64,000 nt of DNA from Bdellovibrionia bacterium (GTDB lineage: Bacteria; Bdellovibrionota; UBA1018). Shown piece after piece: positions 4,152-59,252 of the stretch. The stretch lies in assembly GCA_045805065.1 (NCBI GenBank), contig JBJMMA010000259.1, positions 2,874 through 66,873 of the forward strand, written 5' to 3'. Every line of letters begins with the position of its first letter. Position 1 is the first letter of the stretch. Position numbers and translations under genes: made by a program. A model generated the notes under the pieces. It did not search any database. It had not been told where the DNA came from and saw nothing but the letters and a program-made list of their open reading frames with translations.

Positions 4152-4162
4152 GTCGGTTCGCC

Positions 4163-8998: not shown

Positions 8999-9940
8999 AT
9001 GAGCGTTGAAAAAACTGCCCTGCCTAAAAACATCCTCGTGAACGTCAACGGAGAGTTCTATAGCGCCGATGATGCCAAAGTTTCGGTCTTTGATCGAAGC
9101 TATATCTATGGCGATAGCCTCTATGAGGTAGCCCGCACCTACGGCGGCTATTTCTTTGAGCTGGATGGCCACCTCAAAAGGCTCGGCAAATCAGCCGAGC
9201 TCTGCCACATGGTTTTAGGGCAAAGCCTGGAGACCTATCATAACGAGATTATGAGGACCCTGGCTGCATGGAAGAAAATGGCCGGCAACCAAAAGCGTGA
9301 AGCTTATTGCCGGATCATCGTCAGCCGGGGCGAAGGCCGAATCGGCTTTGGTCTTCCCTGCCTGACGTCTCCCACGCTCTTTACGATTATCGTTCAAGCG
9401 CTTGAGCCGCCTACGGCCGAGCAGTTTCAAAAGGGCTTTAACTTCCAGGTCTCCAAGCGCTTGAGAAATAACCCAAAGGCTTTGGATCCGGCCATGAAAT
9501 CCGGAAACTACCTCAATAGCCTTCTCGCTTACCTTGAGGCAGCTTCTGAGAACTATGACGATGCCCTGCTTTGCAATGCCGATGGACATGTGACTGAAGG
9601 CACAACCTTCAACATCTTCTACATCCGTCGTGGCATCATCGCGACGCCACCTCTGGATATCGGGATACTGGACGGGATCACCCGCCGCGAAGTCATTCAG
9701 ATGTGCCGTGACTCAGGCATTGAGGTCCGCGAAGTCCGATTCCCTAAAGAGCGCCTTTATGAAGCGGATGAAGTTTTCATGACAAGCTCCATTAAGGAAA
9801 TCTTTCCCGTGACCCGGATTGATGGGCGCAAGATCGGAAACGGAACGCCGGGAAAACTCACTCGCAAGCTGCACAATCAGTTCAACGAGCTGATCGCCGA
9901 ACGCACTCAGCGTGAGAACTCACGCAGGAGCACGACTTGA
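8999..9940 (+). CDS. Fold-type IV PLP aminotransferase (branched-chain or D-amino-acid aminotransferase family)
   Basis: N-terminal 'NGEFYSADDAKVSVFDRSYIYGDSLYE' is typical of class IV aminotransferases. 313 aa. Confidence 0.75.
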   Translation: MSVEKTALPKNILVNVNGEFYSADDAKVSVFDRSYIYGDSLYEVARTYGGYFFELDGHLKRLGKSAELCHMVLGQSLETYHNEIMRTLAAWKKMAGNQKREAYCRIIVSRGEGRIGFGLPCLTSPTLFTIIVQALEPPTAEQFQKGFNFQVSKRLRNNPKALDPAMKSGNYLNSLLAYLEAASENYDDALLCNADGHVTEGTTFNIFYIRRGIIATPPLDIGILDGITRREVIQMCRDSGIEVREVRFPKERLYEADEVFMTSSIKEIFPVTRIDGRKIGNGTPGKLTRKLHNQFNELIAERTQRENSRRSTT

Positions 9941-10797
9941 AAAGCAAACGTAAGCAGCCCCAAAAGTTTCCAAAGAGCCCGCCGTTGAACCAGATTGCAG
10001 CCACAGCGGTGCAAGCTGCTCATGCCGCAGGCGCGGTGCTGGCAAAGCATTACGGAAGAAAGCTCAAGATTCGCGAAAAACTGGGCGCGGGCCTGGTGAC
10101 CAATGCGGATCTTGAGGCCGAGGACGCGGCTCTGCGCATTCTCAAGCGGAAGTTTCCGGACTTCGGGACCCTGACAGAGGAATCCCCTCCTGAGATGCCG
10201 CGTGATCATGGAAGGTGGATCCTGGATCCTCTGGATGGAACGACGAACTTTGTTCACGGCTTTCCGATGTTCTGCGTCTCGCTTGCGGCCGAATGGTCAG
10301 GCCAGCTGGTCGTGGGCGTCGTTTATCATCCGATTTTCAAAGAGACCTATCTTGCCATTAAAGGCAAAGGCGCCAAAGTGAACGGCGTGAAGATGAAGGT
10401 CTCCACCACTTCAAAGATCTCGGACTCGCTTTTGACCACGGGCTTTACCTACCGAAGAAACGAGATCCTTCATCAGGAAATGGAAGCCTTTGAAAGGCTC
10501 AGCGGGATTGCGCGCGCGATCCGCCGCCCGGGAAGCGCGGCCTTGGACCTGGCTTACACCGCTCGCGGCGTTTTTGACGGTTTCTGGGAAAGAAAGCTCT
10601 CCCCGTGGGATATGGCCGCGGGAGCCCTTTTAGTCCAGGAAGCGGGTGGGATTGTCACTGATTTCAAGAGCAATCCGTTTCAGCCTGAGTTTCGCGAGAT
10701 TCTAGCCTCCACTCCGCATCTTCACTCTCAACTTCTTCAGGCGGTGGCGCCAGAATATTGTCAGCTCCCGCCCCCTGGCACTTCGATCTCAGACTAA
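9937..10797 (+). CDS. suhB: Inositol monophosphatase family protein (SuhB-like)
   Basis: 'WILDPLDGTTNFVHGFP' IMPase metal-binding motif. ATGA overlap with the upstream gene. Confidence 0.8.
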   Translation: MKSKRKQPQKFPKSPPLNQIAATAVQAAHAAGAVLAKHYGRKLKIREKLGAGLVTNADLEAEDAALRILKRKFPDFGTLTEESPPEMPRDHGRWILDPLDGTTNFVHGFPMFCVSLAAEWSGQLVVGVVYHPIFKETYLAIKGKGAKVNGVKMKVSTTSKISDSLLTTGFTYRRNEILHQEMEAFERLSGIARAIRRPGSAALDLAYTARGVFDGFWERKLSPWDMAAGALLVQEAGGIVTDFKSNPFQPEFREILASTPHLHSQLLQAVAPEYCQLPPPGTSISD

Positions 10798-10845: not shown

Positions 10846-11946
10846 ATGTCTTCATGGATCTACATCTTATCCAAGTTCACGCCTGAAGCCTTGTTATTTG
10901 AGGCTTTGCTGATTTGCGTTCTGGTCTCAAGCTACGCAGCCTTCTGGGTTTTGCGTAAGCGCAGATTTGGCGCCATTGAAGACGAAGTGCCTGCATCGGT
11001 CGTGAAGGTTTACCTGAACGAGCTGATTGGCGAAGCCGAAGACATGCGCACGCAACTCTTCGGCCTGCTCTCAGGCCACGCTCCGCGCCCACGTCACGCT
11101 CACGCTGATGCTCATATTTCTAGCCCATCCTTTGTTGTCTCGGGCGATGCTGCTGAAAAACTCACGGCATTGGAGCAGAAGATGGCCGAACAAGCCGCCG
11201 CCATGGAACGCATCATGAGCGAGAAAGCCAAGCTTGAAAAAGAGCTCAATGATGCTCGCGCAAATGGCGCGGCAGCAGGCGGTGCCAGTGCGGGTGGCGA
11301 AGACGTTCAAAAACTTCAGGAGAAATGCCAGAGCCTTGAAGCTCGCCTGGCCGAATACAGCGTCATCGAAGATGACCTGGCAAATTTGAAGCGCTTGCAG
11401 CAAGAGAACGCTCAGTTGAAGACTCAGCTGGCAAGCGGTGGCGCAGGCGCCACGGCCGCAGGTCCTGCCGTTCCAGCTACCCCTGCAGCGACTGCTGCTC
11501 CATCTACTCCGGCCGCAGCAGAACCCGAAGCCGCTCCAGCTCCTGCCGAAGCAGCACCTGCTCCTGCAGCAGAAGCAGCGCCAGCAACCCCTGCAGATCC
11601 AGAAGCCGCAGCTGCCGCAGCAGCCGTTGCTGCAGCCACCGCCGCTGACGCACCTAGCTCAACCGTCATGGACCAGGACGCAATCCAGGCCATGCTGGAC
11701 TCTGCCGGCACGGCTCCTTCTACTCCTGCCGCTGCTCCTGCACCAAGCGCCGCGTCCAACGAATTTGAAGGCCTGGTTGACGAAGTGGAAAAGAGCTTGC
11801 AACCGAATGCTCCTGCTCCCGCAGCGGCCGCAACTCCTGCAGCTCCGGCTCAAGCAGAAACCAAAGCTGAAAAAACCCCAGAGAAAGTTCCAGAGAAATC
11901 CGATGAAGACCTCATTGCTGAGTTCGAAAAAATGCTTAACAGCTAA
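10846..11946 (+). CDS. Membrane-anchored coiled-coil protein with an Ala/Pro-rich low-complexity tail
   Basis: N-terminal TM helix 'ALLFEALLICVLVSSYAAFWVL'. A coiled-coil central part precedes about 150 aa of A/P/E-rich repeats. The alternative-frame ORFs at 11424..11759(-) and 11438..(+) are frame artefacts of this repeat. Confidence 0.6.
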   Translation: MSSWIYILSKFTPEALLFEALLICVLVSSYAAFWVLRKRRFGAIEDEVPASVVKVYLNELIGEAEDMRTQLFGLLSGHAPRPRHAHADAHISSPSFVVSGDAAEKLTALEQKMAEQAAAMERIMSEKAKLEKELNDARANGAAAGGASAGGEDVQKLQEKCQSLEARLAEYSVIEDDLANLKRLQQENAQLKTQLASGGAGATAAGPAVPATPAATAAPSTPAAAEPEAAPAPAEAAPAPAAEAAPATPADPEAAAAAAAVAAATAADAPSSTVMDQDAIQAMLDSAGTAPSTPAAAPAPSAASNEFEGLVDEVEKSLQPNAPAPAAAATPAAPAQAETKAEKTPEKVPEKSDEDLIAEFEKMLNS

Positions 11947-12727
11947 GGCCGTTGCAGTCCTGCTCGCACTGTCCTCTTTTTCGTCGATTTCGACTTTTGC
12001 TGCCAACACTTACATCGCGCCTTCCCAGGCGACATTGGTTCAGGACATCAACACCAACCCCGATGTCGATTTCGAAGCGCTTCTTCAGCGCTGGACGAAT
12101 CAATACGGAAGCCTCGCCAGTCAGCCCCTGCTTTCCATTGCGAAAGACAAACGCAACTCCGATCGTCAGCGCTACATTGCAGTGATGGGTGCAGCAAAGC
12201 TTGGCGGACCCGCCGTTGCTGAAAAGCTTGTTCCCCTTCTCAAGGACAAAGTCTGGTTGATCCGTAGCGCCACTCTCAGAGCATTGGCAGCGCTCAAAGA
12301 TCCTGCAACTGCTCAGGCGGTTTTGCCTCTATTGAAAGACCCAGCTCTTGTGGTTCGCGTTGAAGCTGTCGAAACCGTAAAAGTCCTCAAGCCTGAAGGG
12401 GGCGCTCAAGCCCTGATCTCGGTTCTCCAAAGCCAGGACAACTATCGTTTTGGAAAAGCCCAATGGGTTCCACAACGCGCTCTTTCAGCGCTTGTGGTTC
12501 TTCATGACTTCTCGGTCGTGCCTTACCTTCGCCCGCTTCTGGACCATCAGAAGGATCCAGAGCTTCAACGCCAGACGATTTTTGCCCTTCAGATGCTGAC
12601 CGGAATCGACAAAGACTCCAAGCTTGCGCTCAACGCGCAGGTCGAGACCTGGAAGAAAATCCTGGCAGGCGACCGCACCCCGGTCGTCACCAGCTCAGCG
12701 CACAGCGAACCTAAGCCTATTCATTGA
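11903..12727 (+). CDS. Secreted HEAT-repeat (PBS-lyase-like) protein
   Basis: The ATG at 11903 gives the signal peptide 'MKTSLLSSKKCLTAKAVAVLLALSSFSSISTFA'. Repeated 'LLKDKVWLIRSATLRALAALKDP' and 'LLKDPALVVRVEAVETV' HEAT-like units follow. The 5' part of the listed 429-aa ORF is the wrong frame of the upstream A/P-rich repeat. Confidence 0.55.
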   Translation: MKTSLLSSKKCLTAKAVAVLLALSSFSSISTFAANTYIAPSQATLVQDINTNPDVDFEALLQRWTNQYGSLASQPLLSIAKDKRNSDRQRYIAVMGAAKLGGPAVAEKLVPLLKDKVWLIRSATLRALAALKDPATAQAVLPLLKDPALVVRVEAVETVKVLKPEGGAQALISVLQSQDNYRFGKAQWVPQRALSALVVLHDFSVVPYLRPLLDHQKDPELQRQTIFALQMLTGIDKDSKLALNAQVETWKKILAGDRTPVVTSSAHSEPKPIH

Positions 12728-17373: not shown

Positions 17374-19131
17374 ATGAGTTCGATTTCTACCACGGACGGC
17401 GGATATCAGTACTACCAACGCAAGCTCAGCGATCTCGAGTCGGAGATGCGCGACGAGGCCAAGCGCTCTCGCGAACATTACGACGAGCGTGCCGACGCGC
17501 TTGAAAAGAAGTCGACGCAGAACGTGCGTGACTACGAAAAGAAATCTGATGAAGCCGTGAATGATGTTCGTGAGAACTCCTCTGCTCAGATGGACAAGGA
17601 GCGCGAGGCCGCACGTGCGGATGTCGAGCGCGCAAGAGCCGCAACCTACGACAAGTACGGTCGCTCGCAATCTGAGATCGCTTTCCACAAAAAGCGCGCT
17701 GACGACGCGATTCAACAGATGCAAGAGCAGATGGACTCACAAAAGCCGAAGTTTGATCGCGCGATCGAAAGCGCCTCGGCCAAGACCACTCTGGGCGCTG
17801 CTGAACGCCTGAGAAAAAACGCCGACCAGGAACACGAAAGCCGCACTCGCGAGACCACGGAGCTTCGGCAATCGATCGATAGCCTGCTTGAAAACGAAAG
17901 AGCCTACGGCAAGGAAAAAGGCCAGGGCTCGGTCGACGCTCGCCGTGAGATTGAGAACGAATCCCGCACTCGCGAGTTCGTCATGCGCAACCAGTACGAG
18001 AACGACCTTCAGCAGCAACAGCACAAGAGCGTTCAGACTGAGCACGACCTGATTCAATCGCATCAGCAGGACATGCACGATCGCGACACTCAATTCGCCA
18101 AAGACCTCCACCGCATGACTCAGCAGCATCAGGACGACATGCGCACCCTCTCTGAGAGCACCGAGCACGTCGTCAATCAGGTGCGTGACATGGCTCGCCA
18201 ACAGGCCGTTCACGCGCAAGAATCCATGGATCGCCAAGCTACCAGCATGCAGCGTGACAACCAGGAATCCCTCACCCGCCAGGCTGAGACTTTCCGACAC
18301 GAAAAACAGCTTCAGCGCGAGGAAGATCAGAGCACGATTCACCACCTGGAGAGCGAGATCAAAGGACACATCACCTCAGGTGATCCATCCTGGGTCGCCC
18401 CGGCAGCCGAAGCCAGAATGCGTGACAACTTCATGAAGGAGTTCACCAAGAAACAAGACGCCGAGATCACTCGCAACAAAGAGAAGACCGATAGCCTCCA
18501 CAAGGAATATTCAAAGCGCCTGGCCGATGTCGTCGAAGCATCAGATACGCGCATCATGACCGCAGAAGCCGATCACCGCTCCAGCGAGTATCTTCAACAG
18601 CAGACTTTGATGAACCATGTCGATGAAATCAAATCCACGCAGGAGCGAATGCTTCGTGACAAGGACTATCAAGCAAACCGCCAGATGGAGTCCCTGAATC
18701 ACAACTACAGCAATGACTTGGAGCGGCAGCGTCGCGAGTATGAAGGCGTCATCAACCAGCTGAAGTCCGACTACAGCCAAAAGATGACCGACGTGCGTCA
18801 ACAAGCCGACTTTAACGCAAAATTAGCGCAGCGCAACTTTGCGTCCCAGCAGTATGAAATCTCCAAGTCTTACGAGCGCAAGCTCGAGGAACAAAAGACT
18901 TCTTACGAAGATGCCCTCTCCAACCTCAAGGAACAGCTTGCAACGCATCAACATGAGGCCGAGCGCCGTACCCGCCAGCTATTAGATGACCAAGCCAAGG
19001 GCTATGAGCAAAAAATCGCTCAAATGGAGTACCAAACTAAGGAGCGAGAGCGTACTATCAGTGACAACTACCAGGACCAAATTGAAAAGTTGAAACGATC
19101 GAATGCTCTCCTCATCCAACGGAAATCTTAG
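17374..19131 (+). CDS. Highly charged, entirely polar coiled-coil/disordered protein (585 aa)
   Basis: A 1.76-kb ORF with a protein-like E/R/D/Q/K-rich composition and no hydrophobic segment. No signal peptide. Confidence 0.6.
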   Translation: MSSISTTDGGYQYYQRKLSDLESEMRDEAKRSREHYDERADALEKKSTQNVRDYEKKSDEAVNDVRENSSAQMDKEREAARADVERARAATYDKYGRSQSEIAFHKKRADDAIQQMQEQMDSQKPKFDRAIESASAKTTLGAAERLRKNADQEHESRTRETTELRQSIDSLLENERAYGKEKGQGSVDARREIENESRTREFVMRNQYENDLQQQQHKSVQTEHDLIQSHQQDMHDRDTQFAKDLHRMTQQHQDDMRTLSESTEHVVNQVRDMARQQAVHAQESMDRQATSMQRDNQESLTRQAETFRHEKQLQREEDQSTIHHLESEIKGHITSGDPSWVAPAAEARMRDNFMKEFTKKQDAEITRNKEKTDSLHKEYSKRLADVVEASDTRIMTAEADHRSSEYLQQQTLMNHVDEIKSTQERMLRDKDYQANRQMESLNHNYSNDLERQRREYEGVINQLKSDYSQKMTDVRQQADFNAKLAQRNFASQQYEISKSYERKLEEQKTSYEDALSNLKEQLATHQHEAERRTRQLLDDQAKGYEQKIAQMEYQTKERERTISDNYQDQIEKLKRSNALLIQRKS

Positions 19132-27540: not shown

Positions 27541-27705
27541 TCTGAGTTAAGTTCTGAAAAAACTATCTCCCTCTCCAAAGGGTCCGTCTTCTAGCGGTAG
27601 CGGTATCAAGCGGAAGTAGAAGCAGAAGCAGTATGAAGTTGCACGACGGAACCACAAGGCAGCCCAACCGGTAACACGGGGCAGATGTTGCCGACTTGGG
27701 CGAAA

Positions 27706-27744
27706 GGGGTAAGCGCTTCCTCAAAAAGGGAACGCTTACCCCTT
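27706..27744 (+). terminator. Hairpin (terminator-like) inside the 5' extension of the recombinase ORF
   Basis: Inverted repeat 'AGGGGTAAGCGCTTCC-tcaaaaag-GGAACGCTTACCCCT' followed by 'TTCCTT'. Confidence 0.35.
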
Positions 27745-27777
27745 CCTTATTACATAGCGCCAGTTAAAATAAGAGAA

Positions 27778-28710
27778 GTGAGCGCATCCCCGCAAACAAA
27801 CGTTCTGATCTACTGGATCAAATCCTTTCTTGAGGCCCGCCGCATCGATCGCGGGGCAAGCGATCGGACGATCGAGGCCTATAAGCGGGACCTGGAACAG
27901 TTTGCAAGCTCCCTCCCCGAAGGACTTGCGCCGGAAAAGATTTCCGCAAGCCATCTTCAGGATTACATCACAAAGCTTCATCATGATCAGCAGAAGCCCG
28001 CATCCATTGCTCGAAAGATCAGTGCTTTGAGACAGTTCTTCAAATTCTGCTGTCTTGAGCGGCGTCTGCTGGAAAACCCTGCTGAGAATCTCGAGTCTCC
28101 CAAGCAAGGTCAGAGACTTCCTAAAAATCTCTCGACCGATGAAGTCGGAAAACTTCTATCAGCCGCAGACACAGGGCTCACTTACTTGAACGAGACAAAC
28201 GCCGATGCCTTGCGCGCTCGCGATCGGGCGATTCTTTATCTGCTTTACGCAACGGGGCTTCGCATCTCAGAACTCACGAGCCTCACCCCTCACGATATTG
28301 ACCTTCAAATGGGTTATCTCCGGGTCAAGGGAAAGGGCGGCAAAGAACGCATCGCCCCTTTTGCCACGGTTGCCGGCGATCATCTGAGAAACTGGATGGA
28401 GAATCATCGCGCGACCCTAAAGCCCGCAACCGATCATGTTTTTATCAACCATCGCGGATTTGCCCTAACGCGCCAATCCGTCTGGAAAACTTTGAAAGAA
28501 CTGGCCCTTCAGGCTGGAGTCTCCACAACTCTTTCTCCTCACAAACTCAGGCATTCCTTTGCGACGCATCTTCTTCAGTCAGGAATGAATCTGCGCTCCC
28601 TTCAAATGCTGCTTGGTCACTCGGATCTTTCCACTACTCAGATCTATGCCCATGTGACGCCTGAACATCTTAAAAGCGCTCATAAGAAGTATCACCCTCG
28701 GGGCGAATAA
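27778..28710 (+). CDS. Tyrosine site-specific recombinase, XerC/XerD family
   Basis: C-terminal 'HKLRHSFATHLLQSGMNLRSLQMLLGHSDLSTTQIYAHV' with catalytic Tyr. N-terminal 'AYKRDL' SAM-like domain. Start placed at the in-frame GTG 27778 after the hairpin. The ORF is open from 27685. Confidence 0.75.
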   Translation: MSASPQTNVLIYWIKSFLEARRIDRGASDRTIEAYKRDLEQFASSLPEGLAPEKISASHLQDYITKLHHDQQKPASIARKISALRQFFKFCCLERRLLENPAENLESPKQGQRLPKNLSTDEVGKLLSAADTGLTYLNETNADALRARDRAILYLLYATGLRISELTSLTPHDIDLQMGYLRVKGKGGKERIAPFATVAGDHLRNWMENHRATLKPATDHVFINHRGFALTRQSVWKTLKELALQAGVSTTLSPHKLRHSFATHLLQSGMNLRSLQMLLGHSDLSTTQIYAHVTPEHLKSAHKKYHPRGE

Positions 28711-39666: not shown

Positions 39667-39743
<77 letters not shown>

Positions 39744-39761
39744 TTAAAGCAAAAGTAAAAA

Positions 39762-39796
39762 GGGCCTGACTCAATGTCAGGCCCTTTTTCGTTTTT
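39762..39796 (+). terminator. Rho-independent terminator after tRNA-fMet
   Basis: Perfect hairpin 'GGGCCTGAC-tcaat-GTCAGGCCC' followed by 'TTTTTCGTTTTT'. Confidence 0.65.
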
Positions 39797-39940
39797 AGAA
39801 GCACGAACGCTGCAACCGTTTTTCAGCAGCCATGCTTCCAGGGTTCGTTTCTTCACTCCGACCCAGCTATCTTTACAAGGACGCCTGTCCTACTTACCTA
39901 TTCATTTGCATGTCACGCACCTTGCAGCAACGACGAGTAG

Positions 39941-41290
39941 ATGAAACCGCACGTAGTAGTCGTGGGAGGAGGCTTTGCAGGGCTCTCTGCAGTGCGCAGG
40001 CTGGCAGGCGCTCCGGTTCGAATTACGCTGATAGACAAGCACAACTATCACCTGTTCCGCCCGCTGACTTATCAAATTGCAACCGGCCTTCTTTCTGAAG
40101 ACGAAGTCGCCGCACCCTTGCGTTCCGTATTTAGCCGGCAATCCAATGCCGAAGTGCTTATGGCCGAGGTGACGGCGATCGACACAAAAAGCAAATCGGT
40201 GCGTCTTGATTTCGGCGAGCTTCACTACGACTTCCTTATTCTCGCGACTGGAATTCAATACAACTACTTTGGTCACGAGCAATGGAAAGAGTTGGCACCA
40301 GGGCTCGACTCTGTTGCCGATGCAGACAAGATCCGAGGAAAGATTCTGTCTGCCTTCGAAGCCGCAGAGAGAATTGCAACAACGAGCGAGAGCAAACCAG
40401 ATGCTATCGAACAATGGTTAACCTTCATCATCGTGGGCGGCGGAACTGCCGGCGTTGAGATGGCTGGAACCATCGCGGAATTGGCGCGGTTCGCGCTGGC
40501 TCGCGACTTTCGGCACATTGATCTGCATAAAGCTCGAATCCTGCTCTTTGAAGCGGGGCCACGTATTCTCCCTACTTTCCCCGAAGCCCTCTCCAATAAG
40601 GCTCATCGACATCTGGAGCGCTTGGGCGTTACCGTCCAAACGAGTAGCAGAGTGGAGCAGGTGCAACCTCAAGGGATTACAGTCAACGATAAACAGATCC
40701 TCAGCCACACCGTGCTGTGGTGTGCGGGCGTATTGGCTTCGCCTGCCGCAGACTGGCTAGGTGCCGAAAAAGGCCGATCAGGAAGAGTCAAAGTTAATCC
40801 GGACCTCTCGGTCCCCGGCCATCCGGACGTTTTTGTCATTGGAGACACGGCGGAGGTGATCGCCGAATCGCGCAATCTCTTCGGCATTAAAGCTGAGAAA
40901 CCTGGTCCAATGCCTGGCGTGGCTCAGCCGGCGATTCAGGAAGGCAAGTACGTAGCCAACGTGATTCGCAGCCGCGTCGCTCAACGTCCTGCACCAGGCC
41001 CGTTCTGGTATTGGAATAAGGGAAATTTAGCGGTCGTTGGCCGAGGTTTCGCGATTGCTGATCTGGGCTTCCTCAAATCTGCGGGGTTCGCTGCTTGGTT
41101 GCTTTGGTCAGGAGTACACATTTATTTTCTTATCGGCTTTGGGAAACGCATCTTGGTTTTTTCACGCTGGGCGATTTCGTTTCTCACGCGTCGTCGAGCA
41201 GTAAGAATCTATCCTTTGGGTCAATCTGAAGCCGAGAGGCTCAATACCTCTGAGCCTCCCGTTCCCAAGGAACACCGCAGAGCCGCATAG
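39941..41290 (+). CDS. ndh: Type II NADH dehydrogenase (NDH-2) / FAD-dependent pyridine nucleotide-disulfide oxidoreductase
   Basis: 'VVVVGGGFAGLSA' and 'IIVGGGTAGVEMAG' dinucleotide-binding motifs, with a C-terminal membrane-anchoring helix. Confidence 0.75.
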   Translation: MKPHVVVVGGGFAGLSAVRRLAGAPVRITLIDKHNYHLFRPLTYQIATGLLSEDEVAAPLRSVFSRQSNAEVLMAEVTAIDTKSKSVRLDFGELHYDFLILATGIQYNYFGHEQWKELAPGLDSVADADKIRGKILSAFEAAERIATTSESKPDAIEQWLTFIIVGGGTAGVEMAGTIAELARFALARDFRHIDLHKARILLFEAGPRILPTFPEALSNKAHRHLERLGVTVQTSSRVEQVQPQGITVNDKQILSHTVLWCAGVLASPAADWLGAEKGRSGRVKVNPDLSVPGHPDVFVIGDTAEVIAESRNLFGIKAEKPGPMPGVAQPAIQEGKYVANVIRSRVAQRPAPGPFWYWNKGNLAVVGRGFAIADLGFLKSAGFAAWLLWSGVHIYFLIGFGKRILVFSRWAISFLTRRRAVRIYPLGQSEAERLNTSEPPVPKEHRRAA

Positions 41291-41318
41291 ACTTGTCCCT
41301 ACCTAGGCCTAGCTAGGA

Positions 41319-42092
41319 CTACGCCGTTTTTTTCATCTCTCCGCGCCGAGGCAGGTGGTTCACCCATTCCGCAAAACGAGTTCGACCAATTCGCGCATCA
41401 CTGCCTGGGACCAGAGATTGATCATTCAATACATCGCCCCAAAAGGGGGAGAGAGGATCGACAACTACCTTGCGGGTGTCTCCAATCGCGCTCAAGTACC
41501 TCTGAACAAACTCTGCGAGCCCCGCTCGATCGGGTCCGCCGATTTCAACCGTGCGATTCAGTGGTGCTCCTAATGTGAAGTCCGACAGAATGGCAGCGAC
41601 ATCATCAGAAAAGATCGGCTGAAAAGCTGCCGGTGACACGCGAATATCCTCGCCTGCACTCCCGGGCTCAGCAAAACTTTCCAAAAATTCGAAAAATTGC
41701 GTTGAGCGAACAATCGAGTAAGGAGTCTTTGCCGATTTGATGAGCGCCTCTTGCGCTAACTTTGCTCGATAATAGCCGTTATTCCGCGATCGTTCGATGC
41801 CGACAATCGAAAGAGCGACATGATGCTTCACATCGGCAATCGCCTCCGCCGCGAGGAGATTACGTCCCGAAGTCGTGAAAAACTCCATAGCGGCTTTGTC
41901 TTCAAATGAAGGCGAATTCGAGACGTCGATGACGATCTGAGCGCCGGAGAGTGCCTGTGCCAGTCCCTCTCCAGTGATCGTATTGACGCCGGAAAGAGGA
42001 GACGCAGCCAATACTTCGTGCCCTTTTTTCCTGAGCCGATTGACAAGATTTGATCCAATCCGTCCACTGCCACCGATGACTACTATCTTCAA
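41319..42092 (-). CDS. NAD(P)-binding SDR / NmrA-like oxidoreductase
   Basis: 'MKIVVIGGSGRIGSNLVNRL' Rossmann N-terminus. TTG start with strong SD 'AAGGAG' 8 nt upstream. Confidence 0.65.
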   Translation of the reverse strand: MKIVVIGGSGRIGSNLVNRLRKKGHEVLAASPLSGVNTITGEGLAQALSGAQIVIDVSNSPSFEDKAAMEFFTTSGRNLLAAEAIADVKHHVALSIVGIERSRNNGYYRAKLAQEALIKSAKTPYSIVRSTQFFEFLESFAEPGSAGEDIRVSPAAFQPIFSDDVAAILSDFTLGAPLNRTVEIGGPDRAGLAEFVQRYLSAIGDTRKVVVDPLSPFWGDVLNDQSLVPGSDARIGRTRFAEWVNHLPRRGEMKKTA

Positions 42093-42113
42093 TTGCTTGA
42101 CTCCTTTCAGTTT

Positions 42114-42140
42114 GGCTCATAACCCAAAGGTCGTAGGTTC
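42114..42140 (+). repeat. 27-nt internal fragment of tRNA-fMet (anticodon stem/loop to T-stem)
   Basis: 'GGCTCATAACCCAAAGGTCGTAGGTTC' is identical to 39696..39722 of the tRNA. It lies between the MEDS kinase stop and the SDR gene start. Confidence 0.5.
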
Positions 42141-42147
42141 TTCGGGT

Positions 42148-43458
42148 TCATGCCGCCCGTTGAGCCATCACTAGCGGAAGCTCCAGGAAGTATCGAATGT
42201 CCAAAGTCGGCATGCGCTCTGCTCGGAGTTTTCCTCCGTGCTGAGAAATGATCCCGGTCGCAAGGGTCCACCACAGCTCCCATCGATCTCGATTCACGTC
42301 CCATGGCGCCTTGCCCTTGAAGTGAATGTCGATCAACACATAAGGCCCTTCCACAACCGAGATGAAAATCGGGCTTTCCGCGTCAGCGGAAGCCATACCT
42401 GACCTCAACAAAACTTCAAATGCCCTGCTCAAGGATTTCTCGTCCCAATGGCCTATGATCCCTCGAGGACAGCTCAAAACAAACCGTCCTTTCTCAGATG
42501 CGCTCAAGCTCCGCACCAGATTATCCAGCAAATCATGCAGATCCAGATCCATGAGCTTGAACGGCATCGGATTGTCGGAAAGAATTTTGTTCAAGTCGAG
42601 CAAATCTTGAATGAGGACATCCGCCTTCTGAACCGCGAAAACGCTCCGATTCGTCAACTCATGTACCTGCTCATTGCCAGGGAACTTCCGAGTCAATAGC
42701 TGAGCACTCAAGAGAGCGGCCCCGAGCGGATTTCGGATATCATGAGTCAGTGATGAGACGAATTGCCTGCGAAGCCTTCGCTCCCGGGTCAGCGATTCGA
42801 TATATTGCTGTGATTCCTTGATCCGATTCTCAAGCGCCACATTGATCCGGTTGATCTCGGCTTTGGCTTGCTTAAGCTGAGGGACCTCAATCATCTCCCA
42901 CCGCCCTCTCCTGACAGCAATCGCGAACTCGTGCGTGCCCGTCACATCCAGGACCTTGTCCGCTCCACAGGACTTGGTCGCGTAACTGCACATGACGACC
43001 AAAGGACGGTTGACAATCAAGCGGTTGAGCTCCCTTTCGCACTGGCAGATGTAACTCCAATCATTCTCTGCCTGCCAGATGACATTGTCGTTCAACCGCA
43101 TGCCGACATAGCCCCGCTCTAACGCCTGCTTGAGCTTGGCATCCAGCGACTTCATGATCTCCTGGCCGTCGCATCTCCCACTCTTCGCGGGCGGGCTCAG
43201 ACTCTGAACGAACTCGATATTGCGTGCTTTCAAGTGCTCATCCAGGTTCGGCATAACTGACTTCAGGCTGCCTAAGGCCAGTTCCTCCGTTACGGGTCCA
43301 CCGATCACCCAAAGACAATACTCGCCGCTCTCCAAGCCGACTTTAAAATAGGGTACGAGCACCCCAAGCAGGTCAGCGCTCGTCTCGTAAAACTGACAGA
43401 AATGCGTGCCCCAAGAGATATCACCGACGGCCGCTATTCCGCTCTTCCTTAGATTCAT
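42148..43458 (-). CDS. Cytoplasmic sensor histidine kinase with an N-terminal MEDS-like (DcmR-type) sensory domain
   Basis: N-terminal 'WGTHFCQFYETSADLL' resembles the MEDS domain signature. H-box 'LTHDIRNPLGA' plus an HATPase_c domain. No TM segment. Confidence 0.65.
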   Translation of the reverse strand: MNLRKSGIAAVGDISWGTHFCQFYETSADLLGVLVPYFKVGLESGEYCLWVIGGPVTEELALGSLKSVMPNLDEHLKARNIEFVQSLSPPAKSGRCDGQEIMKSLDAKLKQALERGYVGMRLNDNVIWQAENDWSYICQCERELNRLIVNRPLVVMCSYATKSCGADKVLDVTGTHEFAIAVRRGRWEMIEVPQLKQAKAEINRINVALENRIKESQQYIESLTRERRLRRQFVSSLTHDIRNPLGAALLSAQLLTRKFPGNEQVHELTNRSVFAVQKADVLIQDLLDLNKILSDNPMPFKLMDLDLHDLLDNLVRSLSASEKGRFVLSCPRGIIGHWDEKSLSRAFEVLLRSGMASADAESPIFISVVEGPYVLIDIHFKGKAPWDVNRDRWELWWTLATGIISQHGGKLRAERMPTLDIRYFLELPLVMAQRAA

Positions 43459-43549
43459 TGCAGTTTTCGCCCTTCATCAATCGAAAATTGCATCTGCAAT
43501 GCCACGATCGCAAATGAAGGATACCAACAGACAAGAGCGTCACTTGCTC

Positions 43550-44563
43550 CTACGCCGCGTGGGCGCCAACTGCATCTTCCCGCGCAAAAACGTCTTTCAG
43601 CATCTGACAGGTGAATTCGATCGCCGCCCGCACCGCCGGCGTGTCCGCGATCGCGTTGAGCAGCATGAAGTCGTGAATCGTGCCGGCCATGCGTAACGCC
43701 GTGACCTCCACGTCCGCGTTCATCAGTTTGTGTGCATAAGCTTCGCCCTCATCGCGAAGCACGTCGTTCTCATCCGTGATTAGAAGCGTCTTCGGCAAAT
43801 CCCTCAATAGCTCTGAAGAGGCCCGCATGGGCGATGCGAGCGGATTTTGGCGGGCCGTCTCGTCCGGCAGATAGGCATTCCAGAACCATTTCATCGCTTC
43901 GCGGGTCAGCCAGGGGCCGTCGGCGAACTCCCGGTAGGAAGGAGTATCGAAGTCCGAGTCGGTGACGGGGTACAACAGACACTGGAAAAGAATTCGAGGC
44001 CCGCCCCGCTCTTTCGCCATCATCGCCAACGTCGCCGCCATGTTTCCGCCTGCGCTTTCACCGACGACCGCAAGCCGGGACGGGTCGATCGCAAGCTTCG
44101 TGCTTTGTTCGGAAATGTACCTCATGACCGCATAGGCCTCTTCGATCTGCGTCGGAAACCGCGCCTCGGGCGCGGGAGTGTAGTTCACGAAAACCACCAC
44201 GGATTCGGATCCGACCGCGATCTCTCGGATCAGGCGGTCGTGCGTTTCCTGGTTCCCCAGGACCCACCCACCGCCATGGGTATAAAGGACGACTGGCAGC
44301 GCATCTTTCCGTCTGTCAGGCCGTTCGTCAGGCTGCCCCTCTGGCCTGACAATCCGGACCGAGACTTTGCCAGATGGTCCCACCGGAAGTACCTCGTCCC
44401 GAGCATCGACAGGCAGCTTTCGCACCTTGGCTTCGGCCTGAGCACGATTGAGCACTTCGCGCGCCTGTTCATAGGTCAGTTGATAAATCGGTGGCCCTCC
44501 CAGAGCCTCCAAACCTTGAATGAATTTTCGGGTGTTCGATTCGAGCATCTTCCACTCCTTCAT
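43550..44563 (-). CDS. Alpha/beta hydrolase (HSL/arylesterase-like esterase)
   Basis: Oxyanion 'HGGGW' and nucleophile 'GESAGG' motifs. Confidence 0.75.
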   Translation of the reverse strand: MKEWKMLESNTRKFIQGLEALGGPPIYQLTYEQAREVLNRAQAEAKVRKLPVDARDEVLPVGPSGKVSVRIVRPEGQPDERPDRRKDALPVVLYTHGGGWVLGNQETHDRLIREIAVGSESVVVFVNYTPAPEARFPTQIEEAYAVMRYISEQSTKLAIDPSRLAVVGESAGGNMAATLAMMAKERGGPRILFQCLLYPVTDSDFDTPSYREFADGPWLTREAMKWFWNAYLPDETARQNPLASPMRASSELLRDLPKTLLITDENDVLRDEGEAYAHKLMNADVEVTALRMAGTIHDFMLLNAIADTPAVRAAIEFTCQMLKDVFAREDAVGAHAA

Positions 44564-44746
44564 GTGGCCGCCTTTCTGTTTCAGAAGCTCGGAAGGAGTT
44601 TGTTCACCTTATGTGCCATGCGAAATGAAATAGATCGACTGAACCGAGGATTGCCGAGCACCTGAATGTATTCGCCCCACCGGAAAAGGCATCTTACCTG
44701 CAGAAATAGACGTGGCCGTAACATGGCCTTGACGTCCGGAGGACGA

Positions 44747-45646
44747 ATGCAAGCACCTGACCTTCGAAAAGTCCTGACTGATGCTGACACTCAGGGGATC
44801 GCCATTGCCCACTTCAACGTGTCAGATCTTGTGTTTCTCAAGGCGGTGTTCTCGTCCGCGCAAGAGCTGAACGTACCGATTCTGGTCGGAGTCTCCGATG
44901 GGGAACGCAAATTCATCGGCGTGCGCCAGATTTCGGCCCTCGTGCAAAGCCTGAGGGACGAATTCAGCTTCCCCATTTTTCTGAATGCGGATCACACGCA
45001 CTCGCTATCCGGCGTCATTGACGCCGCGAACGCGGGCTTCGATCTGATCGTGTTTGATGCCTCGGCCCTGTCATTGGAAGAAAACATCAAACGTACTCGC
45101 GAAGCGGTCGAGGCCGCCAAGTCGATCAACCCAGCCATTTTGATCGAGGGAGAACTCGGCAATATCGGGACTGGATCGTCCATTCACGACAACGTCCCGG
45201 AATCTTCCAAAAATCTGACGGATGCCACCGATGCCAAAAGATTCGTCGAGGCTACCGGAATCGACCTCCTCTCCCCAGCAGTAGGCACCATGCATGGGAT
45301 GCTGCAATCCATGCTCAAAGGACAACAGAAAAAGCATTTGAACATAAGCAGGATCGAGGAAATAAAACGCGCGACTCGGATCCCCCTCACCCTCCATGGA
45401 GGCTCCGGAACTGATGACGAGGATTTTCGGAAGGCCATTTCCGCCGGAATCACCGTCGTGCACATCAACACCGAGCTCCGGGTGGCGTGGAGGCGCGGCC
45501 TCGAGCAAGGGCTGACGGATCAGCCTCAGGAGATCGTGCCCTACAAAGTTCTCCAACCGGCGTTGGATTCCGTGAAGCAGGTCGCGCGCGCTCGCATGGA
45601 GCTTTTCAGCGGAACCGGAAACTCAGTGAGCCGAGCCGTGGCATAG
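44747..45646 (+). CDS. Class II fructose/tagatose-bisphosphate aldolase
   Basis: 'LNADHTHS', 'AVGTMHG' and 'LTLHGGSG' class II aldolase motifs. Start placed at the internal ATG ('MQAPDLRKVL'). The ORF is open from 44666. Confidence 0.8.
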   Translation: MQAPDLRKVLTDADTQGIAIAHFNVSDLVFLKAVFSSAQELNVPILVGVSDGERKFIGVRQISALVQSLRDEFSFPIFLNADHTHSLSGVIDAANAGFDLIVFDASALSLEENIKRTREAVEAAKSINPAILIEGELGNIGTGSSIHDNVPESSKNLTDATDAKRFVEATGIDLLSPAVGTMHGMLQSMLKGQQKKHLNISRIEEIKRATRIPLTLHGGSGTDDEDFRKAISAGITVVHINTELRVAWRRGLEQGLTDQPQEIVPYKVLQPALDSVKQVARARMELFSGTGNSVSRAVA

Positions 45647-45689
45647 TCAGTTCCAACGGAATAGCTCTTGCTCTCATGCTTGCATTGAA

Positions 45690-46169
45690 ATGAGCACCAT
45701 CCAGGCGAGCGTCACTATCCAGCGACCAGTGGAACACGTCTTTCGTTTCTATCAGGACTTCAGAAATCTCCCCCGATTTCTCGGAGACGTGATGTCCATC
45801 AAGCCCACAGGACCGGGAACCGCGAAGTGGACAATTCAAGGCCCGCTGGGAATGCGTGTGCATTGGACGACTCGCGTGACTGAGTTGCGTCCCAATGAGC
45901 TGATCCGGTACCAAACCCTCGGCATTCCCGGGCTCAGCACGGTTTGGGAGATCCGTTTCTCATCAGGAGCGCATCCGGAGGAGACGAAGGTTCGGGAGGT
46001 GATGAAAACACCTTTTGGACGACTGACGCGCGGGGTCCTGACGTTGATCGGAAAGCCTCCCGCCAAAGAGATCGCTTCGAATCTGCACCGCTTGAAAGAG
46101 CTGCTGGAACAAGGAAACGTTACCGACCTTAGCCATTCCGTTCGGGGGAAATTCGATCGTCATGCCTAA
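45690..46169 (+). CDS. SRPBCC (polyketide-cyclase/START-like) family protein
   Basis: 159 aa. N-terminal 'VTIQRPVEHVFRFYQDFRNLPRF' is typical of the polyketide_cyc2/SRPBCC fold. Confidence 0.55.
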   Translation: MSTIQASVTIQRPVEHVFRFYQDFRNLPRFLGDVMSIKPTGPGTAKWTIQGPLGMRVHWTTRVTELRPNELIRYQTLGIPGLSTVWEIRFSSGAHPEETKVREVMKTPFGRLTRGVLTLIGKPPAKEIASNLHRLKELLEQGNVTDLSHSVRGKFDRHA

Positions 46170-46290
46170 ACAGAATGGCAAAACGCGATTGCTCCTTTAC
46201 GGAGCTTACGGGTACACGGGTCGTCTGGCTTCCGAGCTGGCAGCGTCCCGCAAAATCGATCTAGTGCTCGCCGGAGGCAAGCCAAGCCAC
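46162..46290 (+). pseudogene. 5' fragment of a saccharopine-dehydrogenase-like NAD(P)-binding gene, truncated
   Basis: 'TRLLLYGAYGYTGRLASELAASRKIDLVLAGG' is an SDH-like N-terminus. After about 42 aa the sequence loses protein-like character. Lies about 320 nt before the att-like repeat. Confidence 0.4.
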
Positions 46291-46616
46291 GTAAGACCCG
46301 CAAATCTAGCGCCGCGCGCCTTCCAGGATCGAGGAAGCTACACTACGCCTTATCAGAGCATAGGCTGTGCGCCGCTGGTTCAAGACCGCGTTGCCTAGCG
46401 ACACCAGGGCCTGTCCAATCGGGTTTCCGCGGACCGCTGAAGTGAATAGCTCGGCGATCAACCGATCGGAGCTGTCCTTCCTAGTGGATGGATTCTTCGG
46501 GTCATCGTGCATCTGGATACCTCTCCTGGAGAGGCTCATTCCCTTTTTGAAAATATATCCGGTAGGGACAGAGCGTTTATCGATGAACTCTGCTACCTCG
46601 AAGTTAAGTAAAAAAT

Positions 46617-46700
46617 CCAAAGGGAAAAATCCAGCCCCCGCTACCATTCAAGCAAAAGATAAAAGGGACAGTCCACTGGACTGTCCCTTTTTGTTTTTAA
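46617..46700 (+). repeat. Diverged direct repeat of the tRNA-fMet 3' end plus terminator (attR-like junction)
   Basis: 'AAATCCAGCCCCCGCTACCATTCAAGCAAAAGATAAAAGGG' aligns with 39723..39761 with 3 mismatches. A different perfect hairpin 'GGGACAGTCC-actg-GACTGTCCC' and 'TTTTTGTTTTTAAAGCACG' follow, paralleling 39762..39804. Confidence 0.6.
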
Positions 46701-46756
46701 AGCACGTATGTCTTAACTAAGTAAAACTGAGCTTCTTAGCTAACGAGTGGCGAGGA

Positions 46757-48130
46757 TTAATTCATTGGCGGAGGATTCGACAAGAACTCAGTCATTGTCG
46801 CACCTTGATCCTTGTTCGGCACGATTAAGGTGGCCGTACGCCAGTTCGGCGTCGCCAGGAGATAACGACCGTTACCTAAGCCCGGCGCATAACCCAGACT
46901 CCACCCCGTGGTAGGGGTAGGATAATAATCAGCCCCTGTGTCGATCACGTACTTGGCGACGCTGCGATCATCTGGCTTGGACGAATCAGCAACGACAAGC
47001 CTCGTATCCACAGCCACGAAAACCGCTCTTACGTCCGCAGGATTTGGAATCCCTTTGCCCCCGCTCGAGGAGGAGCTGCCGTAGCCGTGCTCGAAGTAAG
47101 GATAGGCAGGGCGAAAGGAAACGCCACCGTCGGATTCTACTTTTCGGTCAGGCGTGCCCGCGCTGGCGAATGGGTACTTCCACAGGCCAGTGTCCGGAGC
47201 CGTGACTTGGTTCCATTGCGACCACTTGCGCGTCGAATTGGAGAGAATGTAAACTCTAAGATTTTTGATTTCTACACGCGTGTTGGTCGCGGCGTTTCCT
47301 TGAGCCTCGTACAGCGTGTACCATGCGAGCAATCCGCTACACCAGGTAGGACGCTCCCCCGTCCACCAAGATGGGATTGAGCTTCCGGCTGGTGAGTACT
47401 GCGTGATCACAGGATTGTACTGCCAGTCGAACGAAGGATTGATCACCAGCGCCTCGCTTGGAGACGACATGTCTTTCACCACTTGGTCGATTGTCAGCCC
47501 AGTTGAGGAAGTCGACGAAGGCGTTGGACTTGGCTTTACAGTCGGTGTCGGACTTGGACTTGGCTTCGGAGTCACAGTTGGACTCGGGCTCGGAATTGGC
47601 GCGGCTCCACTTGCAAAGCTCCATTTCTGATTGGCACCGGCGCCGCAATCATAGAGAATCACCGGCGTTCCATTTGCGGAATTATTTGCGGCGACATCCA
47701 TGCAGCGTCCACTCGATGCACTCACAAGCCTTCCGTTCGAGAGTGACCATTTTTGAGTTACTGAATTGTTGCAGGTCTTGGAGACGATGGGATTCAAGTT
47801 GGCGCCAGTGCCCTTGATGTCCAGGCAAAGATTGCCAGCACCAGCAAAGCTCTTCAGCTGTCCTGAGGAGTTCAGAACGAAAGACTGATTGCTTCCGCCG
47901 TTACAACTCCAGATCTCAAGCGCCGCGCCAGAAGCAGTGCTGTTAGCAGTGACATCTAAGCATATATTGGTTCCAAGGCTGCTCTTCACTGCCCCTGATG
48001 CTACGGTCGTGACTGCCGCAGCTTTGGCTGGATGGGCGGAGGCGATCAATGCAAGAGCAAGTCCTCCCGACCAGGGCGCAACTCGCTTTAAAAATGCTCT
48101 ACTCTTAATCGCTCTACAGGTTTTCATTTC
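46757..48130 (-). CDS. Secreted ricin-B (beta-trefoil) lectin domain protein with a Pro/Thr/Ser linker and an unknown C-terminal domain
   Basis: Signal peptide from the internal Met 48130. QxW repeats 'NQSFVL', 'TQKWSL', 'NQKWSF' lie around 'CLD' motifs. Linker 'PSPSPTVTPKPSPSPTPTVKPSPTPSS'. The ORF extends to 48178. Confidence 0.7.
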   Translation of the reverse strand, partial: EMKTCRAIKSRAFLKRVAPWSGGLALALIASAHPAKAAAVTTVASGAVKSSLGTNICLDVTANSTASGAALEIWSCNGGSNQSFVLNSSGQLKSFAGAGNLCLDIKGTGANLNPIVSKTCNNSVTQKWSLSNGRLVSASSGRCMDVAANNSANGTPVILYDCGAGANQKWSFASGAAPIPSPSPTVTPKPSPSPTPTVKPSPTPSSTSSTGLTIDQVVKDMSSPSEALVINPSFDWQYNPVITQYSPAGSSIPSWWTGERPTWCSGLLAWYTLYEAQGNAATNTRVEIKNLRVYILSNSTRKWSQWNQVTAPDTGLWKYPFASAGTPDRKVESDGGVSFRPAYPYFEHGYGSSSSSGGKGIPNPADVRAVFVAVDTRLVVADSSKPDDRSVAKYVIDTGADYYPTPTTGWSLGYAPGLGNGRYLLATPNWRTATLIVPNKDQGATMTEFLSNPPPMN

Positions 48131-48440
48131 ATTCCCCCGACAGGAACTGTCTATTCCGTTCCTTATTATCGCACCCAAGCTACAGTAATATCAGCTGTGT
48201 CTCTATCGACCAGTCTCGAAGACGCATAAATTCGCTGAACTTTCGCGAATTAAAGTCAATCTGTATACGCACATAGGCAATGAAATGTTTTGCATCAAAT
48301 CGAGCACCCTCTCCTTGCTCAATAGACGTTGTATAACCGATATCGGACCCCAATCTGACGAGGCCTCGGTGCCTTGCTGGGCCGCTCGCCCCCTTTTCAT
48401 CGCATGATTACCCCCTTGCATCGTGTGGTAGAATAGACGC

Positions 48441-58445: not shown

Positions 58446-59252
58446 ATGCGCTCAAGTGAAACCAGGCCTTCTGCCAGAACTTTAACAAAGCCTTCAAAGG
58501 AATTCGTCGATCTGCTGGAAGACGAGTTCGCACGAAGAAGCAAGCGCAACCCATCGTACTCACTTCGCGCCTTCGCAAAATCCTTGGGGGTGCATCATTA
58601 TACGCTTTCAAGAATACTCAAGGAGCGACGGCCGCTGACTCTGAAGATGATTCAGAAGCTGGTATCCAAGCTCAAGATGGAACCTGAAACGGTCCAGCAA
58701 TTTCTCACTCAGTCCCGTGAGCGAAAAAGAAAACTTCCTCATTTTGAACCGCTCGAGCTTGATAAATATCAAGTCATTCACGATTGGTATCATACCGCGA
58801 TTTTTGAGCTCGTCACGGTCAAGGGATTTCAACCTACACCCGAGTGGATATCGGAGCGTCTCAACATCTCCCAACCCATTGCTGCAAGTGCTATCGACCG
58901 ATTGTTCAGGGTAGGGCTTTTGACCCAGGATAAAAACGGGAAATGGATTCAAACCTCCGCGAACATCACGACGACGCAAAATGATTTTACGACCCAAGCG
59001 CTGCGTGCTCGGCAAAAGCAAGTCCTCGAGCTCGGCATCCGCGCAGTCGATGAAATTTCTTACGAGATGCGCGTTCAGGGCGCCACAACCATAGCGATGA
59101 ACAGCAAACGCCTGCCCGAAGTTCGCAAAAGAGTGCATCAATTTCGAAAGCAACTCTGCTCGATTCTGCAAAAAGACAAAGAGCGCGATGTCGTCTATGA
59201 GCTTGTGACCTCATTTTATCCCATGACGGCTGTCAAAGGATCCAAGAAATGA
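58446..59252 (+). CDS. HTH DNA-binding protein resembling the TIGR02147 paralogous family
   Basis: N-terminal HTH 'SYSLRAFAKSLGVHHYTLSRILKERRPLTLKMIQKLVSKL'. 268 aa. Family assignment is from memory of the family description, not a search. Confidence 0.5.
   Translation: MRSSETRPSARTLTKPSKEFVDLLEDEFARRSKRNPSYSLRAFAKSLGVHHYTLSRILKERRPLTLKMIQKLVSKLKMEPETVQQFLTQSRERKRKLPHFEPLELDKYQVIHDWYHTAIFELVTVKGFQPTPEWISERLNISQPIAASAIDRLFRVGLLTQDKNGKWIQTSANITTTQNDFTTQALRARQKQVLELGIRAVDEISYEMRVQGATTIAMNSKRLPEVRKRVHQFRKQLCSILQKDKERDVVYELVTSFYPMTAVKGSKK

Follow-up and report, generated by a model that had tools for sequence, protein, structure and literature searches.

How did 27 nucleotides from the interior of an initiator tRNA gene come to lie between the gene for a sensor-kinase-like protein and that for an NAD(P)-binding protein of a Bdellovibrionia bacterium, and do they have a function at this site? 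The window, which is the complete stretch of 64,000 nucleotides analyzed here, contains this 27-mer, GGCTCATAACCCAAAGGTCGTAGGTTC, at positions 42114-42140 of the plus strand, with 27/27 same-strand identity to nucleotides 31 to 57 of a tRNA-Met(CAT). It is located in a region between 39.7 and 46.7 kb, designated “island” in the following, with a block 1 and a block 2 on the two sides of the 27-mer and these features:

39667-39743, plus strand: intact initiator tRNA-Met(CAT), found by ARAGORN and Rfam (RF00005, 61 bits), the sole tRNA in the window.
39744-39812, plus strand: downstream unit D1, with TTAAAGCAAAAGTAAAAAGG preceding a terminator hairpin (39757-39790), which is followed by a T-run and AGAAGCAC (inverted repeat, alignments, nhmmer).
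39941-41290, plus strand: block 1, type-II NADH dehydrogenase (NDH-2)-like flavoprotein (Pfam Pyr_redox_2 and NDH2_C; GC3 0.55).
41319-42092, minus strand: block 1, NmrA/atypical-SDR-like NAD(P)-binding protein, “SDR” below (Pfam NAD_binding_10 and NmrA; GC3 0.52).
42114-42140, plus strand: the 27-mer, an exact copy of tRNA nucleotides 31-57, interpreted as the beginning of an att-type tRNA 3' fragment that was cut in the T-loop.
42141-42170, plus strand: sequence after the 27-mer, TCATGCCGCCCGTTGAGCCA, with a weak likeness to the tRNA 3' end TCCTGCC-CCCGCT-A-CCA; the last MEDS kinase codons overlap with it.
42131-43505, minus strand: MEDS-HisKA sensor-kinase-like module (open reading frame 42148-43458, stop codon 42148-42150; Pfam, homolog P0122, blastn, alignment).
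43550-44563, minus strand: block 2, Abhydrolase_3 or hormone-sensitive-lipase-type esterase (Pfam; NCBIfam LipP1-like; GC3 0.70).
44666-45646, plus strand: block 2, class II fructose-bisphosphate aldolase family protein (Pfam, NCBIfam).
45690-46169, plus strand: block 2, SRPBCC or polyketide-cyclase-like protein (Pfam).
46306-46647, minus strand: 113-aa open reading frame with no family match and with its ATG inside the distal tRNA fragment.
46627-46708, plus strand: distal tRNA-derived fragment AAATCCAGCCCCCGCTACCA, followed by downstream unit D0, which includes a separate terminator hairpin (blastn-short, alignments, nhmmer E=4e-26).

The sequence of the tRNA-Met(CAT) at 39667-39743 displays the features of an initiator tRNA: the anticodon stem is closed by three G-C pairs, the first pair is a C1xU72 mismatch, and an A11-U24 pair is present. 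This tRNA is 100% identical in the relatives L081 to L083 and represents the integration target as well as the sequence from which both fragments were derived. A search of the window for GGCTCATAACCCAAAGGTCGTAGGTTC with up to 3 mismatches yielded exactly 2 copies, at 39697-39723 and at 42114-42140, both exact and both on the plus strand, with a spacing of 2417 nt; the earlier note had described the segment as identical to a part of the tRNA 2.4 kb upstream and in the same orientation, and this was confirmed. The 27-mer contains the end of the 5' strand of the anticodon stem, the anticodon loop, the 3' strand, the variable loop, the 5' strand of the T-stem, and the TTC of the T-loop. The match stretches to 31 nt from position 42110 when one mismatch is accepted. 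ARAGORN and Rfam called only 39667-39743 as a tRNA, and the 27-mer was without a cloverleaf call.

At its present site, the 27-mer fills half of a 55-nt spacer, with the stop codon of the MEDS-HisKA gene on one side and the start codon of the SDR gene on the other. The latter is a TTG at 42090-42092 with an AAGGAG motif 8 nt upstream at 42101-42106, so that the gene context given previously, including the kinase stop at 42148 and the Shine-Dalgarno sequence, could be verified, with the location in a 5' UTR of the SDR gene being putative. Local alignment of the adjacent sequence at 42141-42170 with the tRNA 3' end resulted in p values of about 0.03 to 0.04 in comparison to shuffles, with 2 to 3% of the window segments scoring equally, and in p=0.09 in a broader test. 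This is suggestive only, and a decayed tRNA 3' end may be present here. On the left side of the 27-mer, the likeness to the tRNA was not significant (p=0.9).

The 27-mer had been regarded as an “orphan,” which does not hold: the remaining half of the tRNA plus a terminator was found at 46627-46708, starting at the next tRNA base. When the tRNA region was compared with the whole window by k-mer and blastn-short comparison, 39724-39764 agreed with 46627-46667 in 37 of 41 positions, and similarity past 46667 continued to about position 46708 via a terminator hairpin of different stem sequence. [quoted passage not shown] Position 39723 of the tRNA is the last base of the 27-mer and position 39724 the first base of the distal fragment; the two pieces adjoin each other in the tRNA and follow the same order in the window. 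Jointly, they represent the tRNA from nucleotide 31 to the CCA plus the terminator, split at TTC/AAATCC in the T-loop and placed 4,486 bp apart (42141-46626). The tRNA remainder and its terminator being 4.5 kb away at 46627, the block encoding the kinase, the esterase, the aldolase, and the SRPBCC protein (42141-46626) is situated inside what looks like one split attachment site.

Both fragments (42114-42140 and 46627-46708) are on the plus strand, downstream of the intact tRNA and in the same orientation, but the distal fragment reaches the tRNA 3' end while the 27-mer extends only to the TTC of the T-loop. An nhmmer profile of the tRNA-derived unit identified three sites only in the window. 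A downstream unit of the D1 type also trails the distal fragment and the pseudo-tRNAs of contig L086, which are described below. The likeness between the 5' part of the tRNA and the sequence upstream of 46627 was not significant (p=0.09). With respect to the T-stem, the 27-mer carries A51, and the distal fragment carries A63 (CCAGC), a variant that pairs with T51 as in L232. Since A63 is the partner of T51 and not of A51, the 27-mer and the distal fragment did not originate from one functional tRNA allele. The tRNA-fMet of L232 (1710-1786) has the T-stem GTTGG/CCAGC and that of the window GTAGG/CCTGC, which is a compensatory change of one pair.

The ATG of the 113-aa open reading frame at 46306-46647 is the reverse complement of ACCAT at the 3' end of the distal tRNA fragment. 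This reading frame may be spurious, or its start may have been made by the att sequence. Its product was compared with that of the 94-aa open reading frame of L086 and found to be unrelated.

The boundaries of the fragments can be evaluated by comparison with viral contigs. Islander counted anticodon-centered attP sites as well as those in the T-stem region, recognized tandem arrays, and used a regenerated tDNA plus a displaced fragment as marks of the island ends (PMC4383910), and the sublocations of crossovers in tDNA were analyzed before (Williams 2002, PMC100330). A scan of IMG/VR for the exact 27-mer yielded 27 contigs. Eight of these harbor the 27-mer inside a partial copy of tRNA-fMet that was not called by ARAGORN, started 0 to 2 nt from the left boundary found in the window, and ran to the CCA, and a PF00589 tyrosine integrase adjoins each of these eight copies. 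A second scan, with the tRNA 3' end, resulted in 102 contigs, which were sorted by the start of the tRNA identity into three groups: full-length tRNAs, at least 26 partial copies starting at nucleotides 21 to 34 in the anticodon arm, and 14 starting at nucleotides 53 to 58, at or just before AAATCC. The neighbors of 10 members of this T-loop class were tested and comprised 7 large serine recombinases with open reading frames running through the fragment, 1 tyrosine integrase, 1 rve transposase, and 1 unassigned case. Six of the 7 large serine recombinases contained Resolvase, Recombinase, and Zn_ribbon domains; that of L330 was without a Resolvase hit.

On the basis of these classes of partial copies, the left end of the 27-mer is assigned to the anticodon class of boundaries, and its right end together with the start of the distal fragment to the T-loop class. 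The two ends of one fragment may be taken as marks of two recombinase classes that used the same tRNA gene, with the anticodon loop being the site of tyrosine integrases and the T-loop that of large serine recombinases. The agreement with the viral copies concerns the identical 27-mer and left boundary in the eight contigs and the T-loop class, which begins with AAATCC as does the distal fragment of the window. In contrast to the 27-mer, the viral partial copies all run to the CCA and have kept a recombinase gene, and the acceptor ends of these copies, which read GCAACCA in the eight contigs, indicate other host lineages. In L270, L293, L306, L326, L338, and L342, all from IMG/VR, the C-terminal coding sequence of the serine recombinase crosses the partial tRNA-fMet 3' end from AAATCC, which means that integration would change the tail of these recombinases.

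The gene just upstream of the tRNA encodes a histidine kinase with orthologs in metagenome contigs, at 91% amino acid identity in L232, 86% in L081/L082, and 84% in L083, and a tRNA-fMet is present at the same place in all of them. Similarity to the window is lost at 39743-39751, the tRNA 3' end. Downstream of the tRNA, L232 contains genes for a redoxin-acetyltransferase fusion and a MazG-like protein; L081/L082 an acetyltransferase run, which ends near an 85-aa remnant of a serine recombinase; and L083 a sigma-54 activator plus other genes. At the protein level, synteny with the window did not resume within the 2 to 10 kb of the relatives' contigs past the tRNA; these contigs end short of the distal side of the island, and an empty site was not seen among them. 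With synteny ending at the tRNA and each lineage having other genes beyond it, the tRNA 3' flank is a hot spot of turnover. The 85-aa PF07508 remnant is located at 12736-12993 in L081 and at 9541-9798 in L082, about 6 kb downstream of the tRNA-fMet on the far side of the acetyltransferase-rich variable block.

The right end of the 27-mer is, in addition, linked to the kinase gene. The closest homolog of the MEDS-HisKA protein, P0122 (88% amino acid identity), is encoded by four contigs from four samples, L086 to L089. Nucleotide similarity between the window and L086 comprises 43505-42131 only, starting 47 nt before the start codon and ending inside the 27-mer, and amounts to 92.6%, which is higher than the 87% nucleotide identity to the window in the core kinase region of L232, the closest relative found. 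At the right end of the 27-mer, 7 to 10 nt belong to the kinase flank in four independent assemblies (L086 to L089). Directly 3' of the kinase stop, the sequence is GGTTCTTAGGTTC-TTCTCGCT-TCA in L086 versus GGTCGTAGGTTC-TTCGGGT-TCA in the window, and this alignment indicates that the joint between the T-arm half and the kinase (TAGGTTC-TTC) is common to both lineages.

In L086, three pseudo-tRNA-fMet copies are present within 2.3 kb on the minus strand (9790-9920, 11340-11461, and 11985-12072), and the same is true for L087 to L089. Each of the L086 copies is followed by a terminator unit of the kind found in the window, with single genes between them (the 94-aa open reading frame and the MEDS kinase) on one strand, and none was called as a tRNA. 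All 3 copies contain an identical 18-nt insert, AGTACACGCGGCACGCGT, between TTC and AAATCC, which is the split point of the copy in the window; the insert is absent from the window and from IMG/VR. One of the L086 copies lacks the 23-nt core of the 27-mer, and another one carries an extra 27-nt hairpin after the D-arm.

Concerning the content of the island, no gene for an integrase, recombinase, transposase, or phage protein was found between 39.7 and 46.7 kb using Pfam, PHROGs, and NCBIfam, and tblastn of 12 tyrosine and serine recombinases against the window revealed nothing in this region, in which the intergenic gaps (39744-46700) are at most 197 bp. A ricin-lectin gene follows the island at 46757-48178. 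The sole recombinase of the window is encoded in the conserved core at 27685-28710 (+), roughly 6 kb upstream of scpA/scpB; it has the domains Phage_integrase and Phage_int_SAM_1 and is a tyrosine recombinase of the Xer type. A step in GC3 is present at the 27-mer, with 0.55 (NDH-2) and 0.52 (SDR) on the left and 0.65, 0.70, 0.67, 0.64, and 0.62 for the five genes on the right.

The MEDS-HisKA protein does not contain HATPase_c. Its homologs P0122 (88%) and P0124 to P0126 (55%) are also composed of 436 aa with MEDS and HisKA only, so that the architecture without an ATPase is conserved and not the product of a truncation. The gene for a distant homolog of this kinase, P0009, is located in an unrelated genomic context, and the MEDS kinase was not found in IMG/VR. 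Homologs of the SDR, with up to 79% identity (P0242), occur in many phyla and in unrelated contexts, P0243 among them, and a scan of genome contigs with the SDR as query gave homologs of up to 64% identity, again from many phyla, none of them with the 27-mer. In L018, an NDH-2 homolog (60% identity) is encoded 7 kb from an SDR.

Taken together, these data are best explained, with a probability of roughly 70%, by the assumption that the 27-mer is a scar of site-specific recombination at the initiator tRNA, namely, the first 27 nt of a displaced att-type tRNA 3' copy that was split or truncated by a later event. Points against this explanation are the lack of a recombinase gene or remnant in the island, the sequences of the two block junctions, and the T-stem alleles. 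The earlier note had proposed a second insertion or deletion junction at about 42.1 kb, putatively an older one. The junction as such is supported by the att-type boundaries, the end of the L086 homology inside the 27-mer, the step in GC3, and the variable 3' flank of the tRNA. Its division of the region into sub-blocks of 39.8 to 42.1 kb and 42.1 to 46.6 kb could be kept in part: a joint exists at the 27-mer, but a second break of homology follows at 43505, and the unit shared with L086 is the 1.4-kb kinase module and not the whole 4.5-kb block.

The order of events may be reconstructed as follows. Most likely, an anticodon-class integration at the initiator tRNA would have created the displaced tRNA 3' copy, and an event of the T-loop class, or a rearrangement, would then have split or truncated this copy, leaving the kinase-led block inside. 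The block with the NDH-2 and SDR genes is positioned between the live tRNA and the 27-mer. At least two integration events are assumed, presumably by recombinases that were lost since then. The putative loss of the recombinase genes indicates that the structure is probably fixed, and the truncated middle repeat likewise argues against present mobility. The junctions of 42141-46626 are GGTTC/TTCGGG on the left and GGGAA/AAATCC on the right, with no duplicated crossover core; they were examined as clean products of a tyrosine or a serine recombinase with a shared overlap or dinucleotide, and neither fits. The T-stem alleles did not lead to an order of events either: with A51 in the 27-mer, T51/A63 in L232, and A63 in the distal fragment, one nucleotide is left without an explanation in every simple order.

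Alternatively, only the 1.4-kb MEDS-kinase module (about 42114-43505) may have been inserted, with a tRNA-derived end coming from an L086-like array, into a preexisting pair of adjacent esterase and SDR genes. This possibility is clearly less probable than the scar of a split tRNA copy but needs to be considered. Homology to L086 is confined to 42131-43505 and breaks on both sides, and deletion of 42114-43505 would result in an esterase-SDR spacer of 65 bp. Moreover, genes for esterase homologs are situated directly upstream of those for SDR homologs, on the same strand and 79 to 278 bp apart, in L052 (Marmoricola, Actinomycetota; 3928-5685), L067 (Hyphomicrobiales, Alphaproteobacteria; 5065-7045), and L074 (Chitinophagaceae, Bacteroidota; 8981-10729). 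The gene pair of these three other phyla spans the proposed joint, which counts against the split-copy reading and suggests that the two blocks may share a history; the Abhydrolase_3 esterase and the NmrA/SDR protein may be a conserved functional pair. On the other hand, the SDR-adjoining esterases are only 45 to 53% identical to that of the window, and the GC3 value of the latter, 0.70, groups its gene with the kinase gene and the genes further to the right and not with the SDR gene (0.52). The other end of the module, in the spacer between kinase and esterase, is without a tRNA-like sequence (p=0.8), and the exact continuation of the tRNA at 46627 would have to be a coincidence.

The pseudo-tRNA arrays of L086 lead to a further interpretation, by analogy to integrons. 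Pseudo-tRNA-fMet units composed of a partial cloverleaf and a terminator might be active attC-like sites in this Bdellovibrionia clade that shuffle single-gene cassettes by means of a recombinase encoded elsewhere, and the 27-mer and the TTC/AAATCC split would then be a footprint of this activity instead of the ordinary decay of a prophage or island. The lead comes from the perfectly conserved T-loop hairpin and the single-gene spacers in the L086 units; the MEDS kinase gene and the 94-aa open reading frame would be the cassettes. Similar to integron attC arrays, L086, and L086 only, exhibits single genes in one orientation between structured repeats of about 130 nt with a perfectly conserved short hairpin. 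Different from attC arrays, the repeats are visibly derived from tRNA-fMet and appear to lack attC R/L boxes, and the window itself contains genes in mixed orientations and no such hairpin. An IntI-type integrase was found neither in the window nor in the parts of the L086 contig examined. An activity of this kind is unlikely, albeit it would represent a new mechanism of cassette exchange if true. The pattern for finding further instances of the unit is TTCAGTACACGCGGCACGCGTAAATCC.

A function of the 27-mer in its present position would be another option. In the leader of the SDR gene, it could act as a co-opted cis-acting RNA element, either as one half of a hairpin influencing the stability of the mRNA or the accessibility of the Shine-Dalgarno sequence, or by an antisense match to tRNA-fMet. 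The minus-strand RNA from 42175 to 42080 is predicted to fold at -27 kcal/mol (z=-2.75, with 2 of 200 shuffles as good) into a 9-bp stem between AACCCGAAG in the kinase flank and CUUUGGGUU inside the 27-mer, and the outer helix touches GGAG. However, the partner of the hairpin is missing in L086, the homologs of the SDR, including the 69%-identical one in L231, have no such leader, no Rfam family matches, and neither a promoter in the 55-nt spacer nor a terminator nearby was predicted. Descent alone explains the perfect identity to a conserved tRNA segment. A regulatory role is therefore very improbable, and the 27-mer is, with high probability, a recombination scar without a function of its own.

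An artifact of the assembly, in which the contig of this metagenome-assembled genome (MAG) was mis-threaded via the short repeat shared with the tRNA gene, may also be considered, since the source is a single MAG contig and a second assembly of the same strain was not found. Nevertheless, the 27-mer is flanked by non-tRNA sequences on both sides, which a single misjoin cannot make, and its right end of 7 to 10 nt is native to the kinase flank in L086 to L089. The final k-mers of common assemblers are also longer than a repeat of 27 nt, and this explanation can hardly be upheld. A chance match or convergence with no descent from the tRNA gene is ruled out for practical purposes, because 100 dinucleotide shuffles yielded 0 matches to the 27-mer, setting the chance expectation to zero, and the 27-mer shares its orientation with the tRNA and is collinear with the second fragment.

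The interpretation of the 27-mer as a scar of recombination at the tRNA can be compared with known systems. As with the displaced tDNA fragments of Islander-type islands (PMC4383910, PMC100330), the 27-mer is a direct repeat in the same orientation downstream of the intact gene with an anticodon-centered left boundary, the distal fragment reaches the CCA end, and synteny with relatives breaks at the tRNA. Different from these, the 27-mer is internal and without the tRNA 3' end, and neither interval contains an integrase gene, so that the Islander filters would reject them; the blocks are, moreover, very small (2.4 and 4.5 kb), and their cargo is only metabolic and regulatory. The order in the window is that of a tandem array, tRNA, block 1, 27-mer, block 2, and distal fragment, with each block delimited by its own att repeat. 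Tandem islands at ssrA in Dehalococcoides are mobilized by a CcrB-like serine recombinase and include “cis-mobilizable” members without an integrase (PMC3146451). Similarities are the islets in series downstream of one small-RNA gene, the lack of an integration module in some of them, and the strain-variable region. In the window, however, the target is a tRNA-fMet instead of a tmRNA, no serine recombinase is present, and one repeat is truncated at the T-loop and does not start there.

Displaced tRNA fragments, tandem islets, and members without an integrase are well known. Slightly unusual are the internal fragment, its ends of two different crossover classes, and tiny islets with a housekeeping-like cargo. 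The locus may serve as a worked example of how an internal tRNA fragment marks a nested or tandem joint in a small islet without an integrase, which would be missed by island finders that look for a fragment plus an integrase. For the poorly sampled Bdellovibrionia lineage, it points to the 3' flank of the initiator tRNA as a site of accessory gene turnover, here with genes for a respiratory NADH dehydrogenase, a reductase, a kinase-like sensor, an esterase, and an aldolase.

Outside of the island, a DUF4423 (HTH) protein is encoded in the window at 58446-59252 (+), 12 kb past the island, and another one in L083 at 6020-6826 (-), where its gene belongs to the variable stretch that follows the tRNA; a DNA comparison of the two genes detected no similarity. 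Among the matches listed for a scan of metagenome contigs with CCGCTACCATTNAAGCA were chance matches, mostly to a repeated lipoprotein signal-peptide region. In L034, a Verrucomicrobiae MAG, a tRNA-Met (12578-12654) is present 1.8 kb downstream of the gene for an SDR homolog, and a partial copy of this tRNA follows 4.8 kb further at 17445-17495. The pair encloses a gene for an nSTAND1 NTPase and resembles an ordinary small island.
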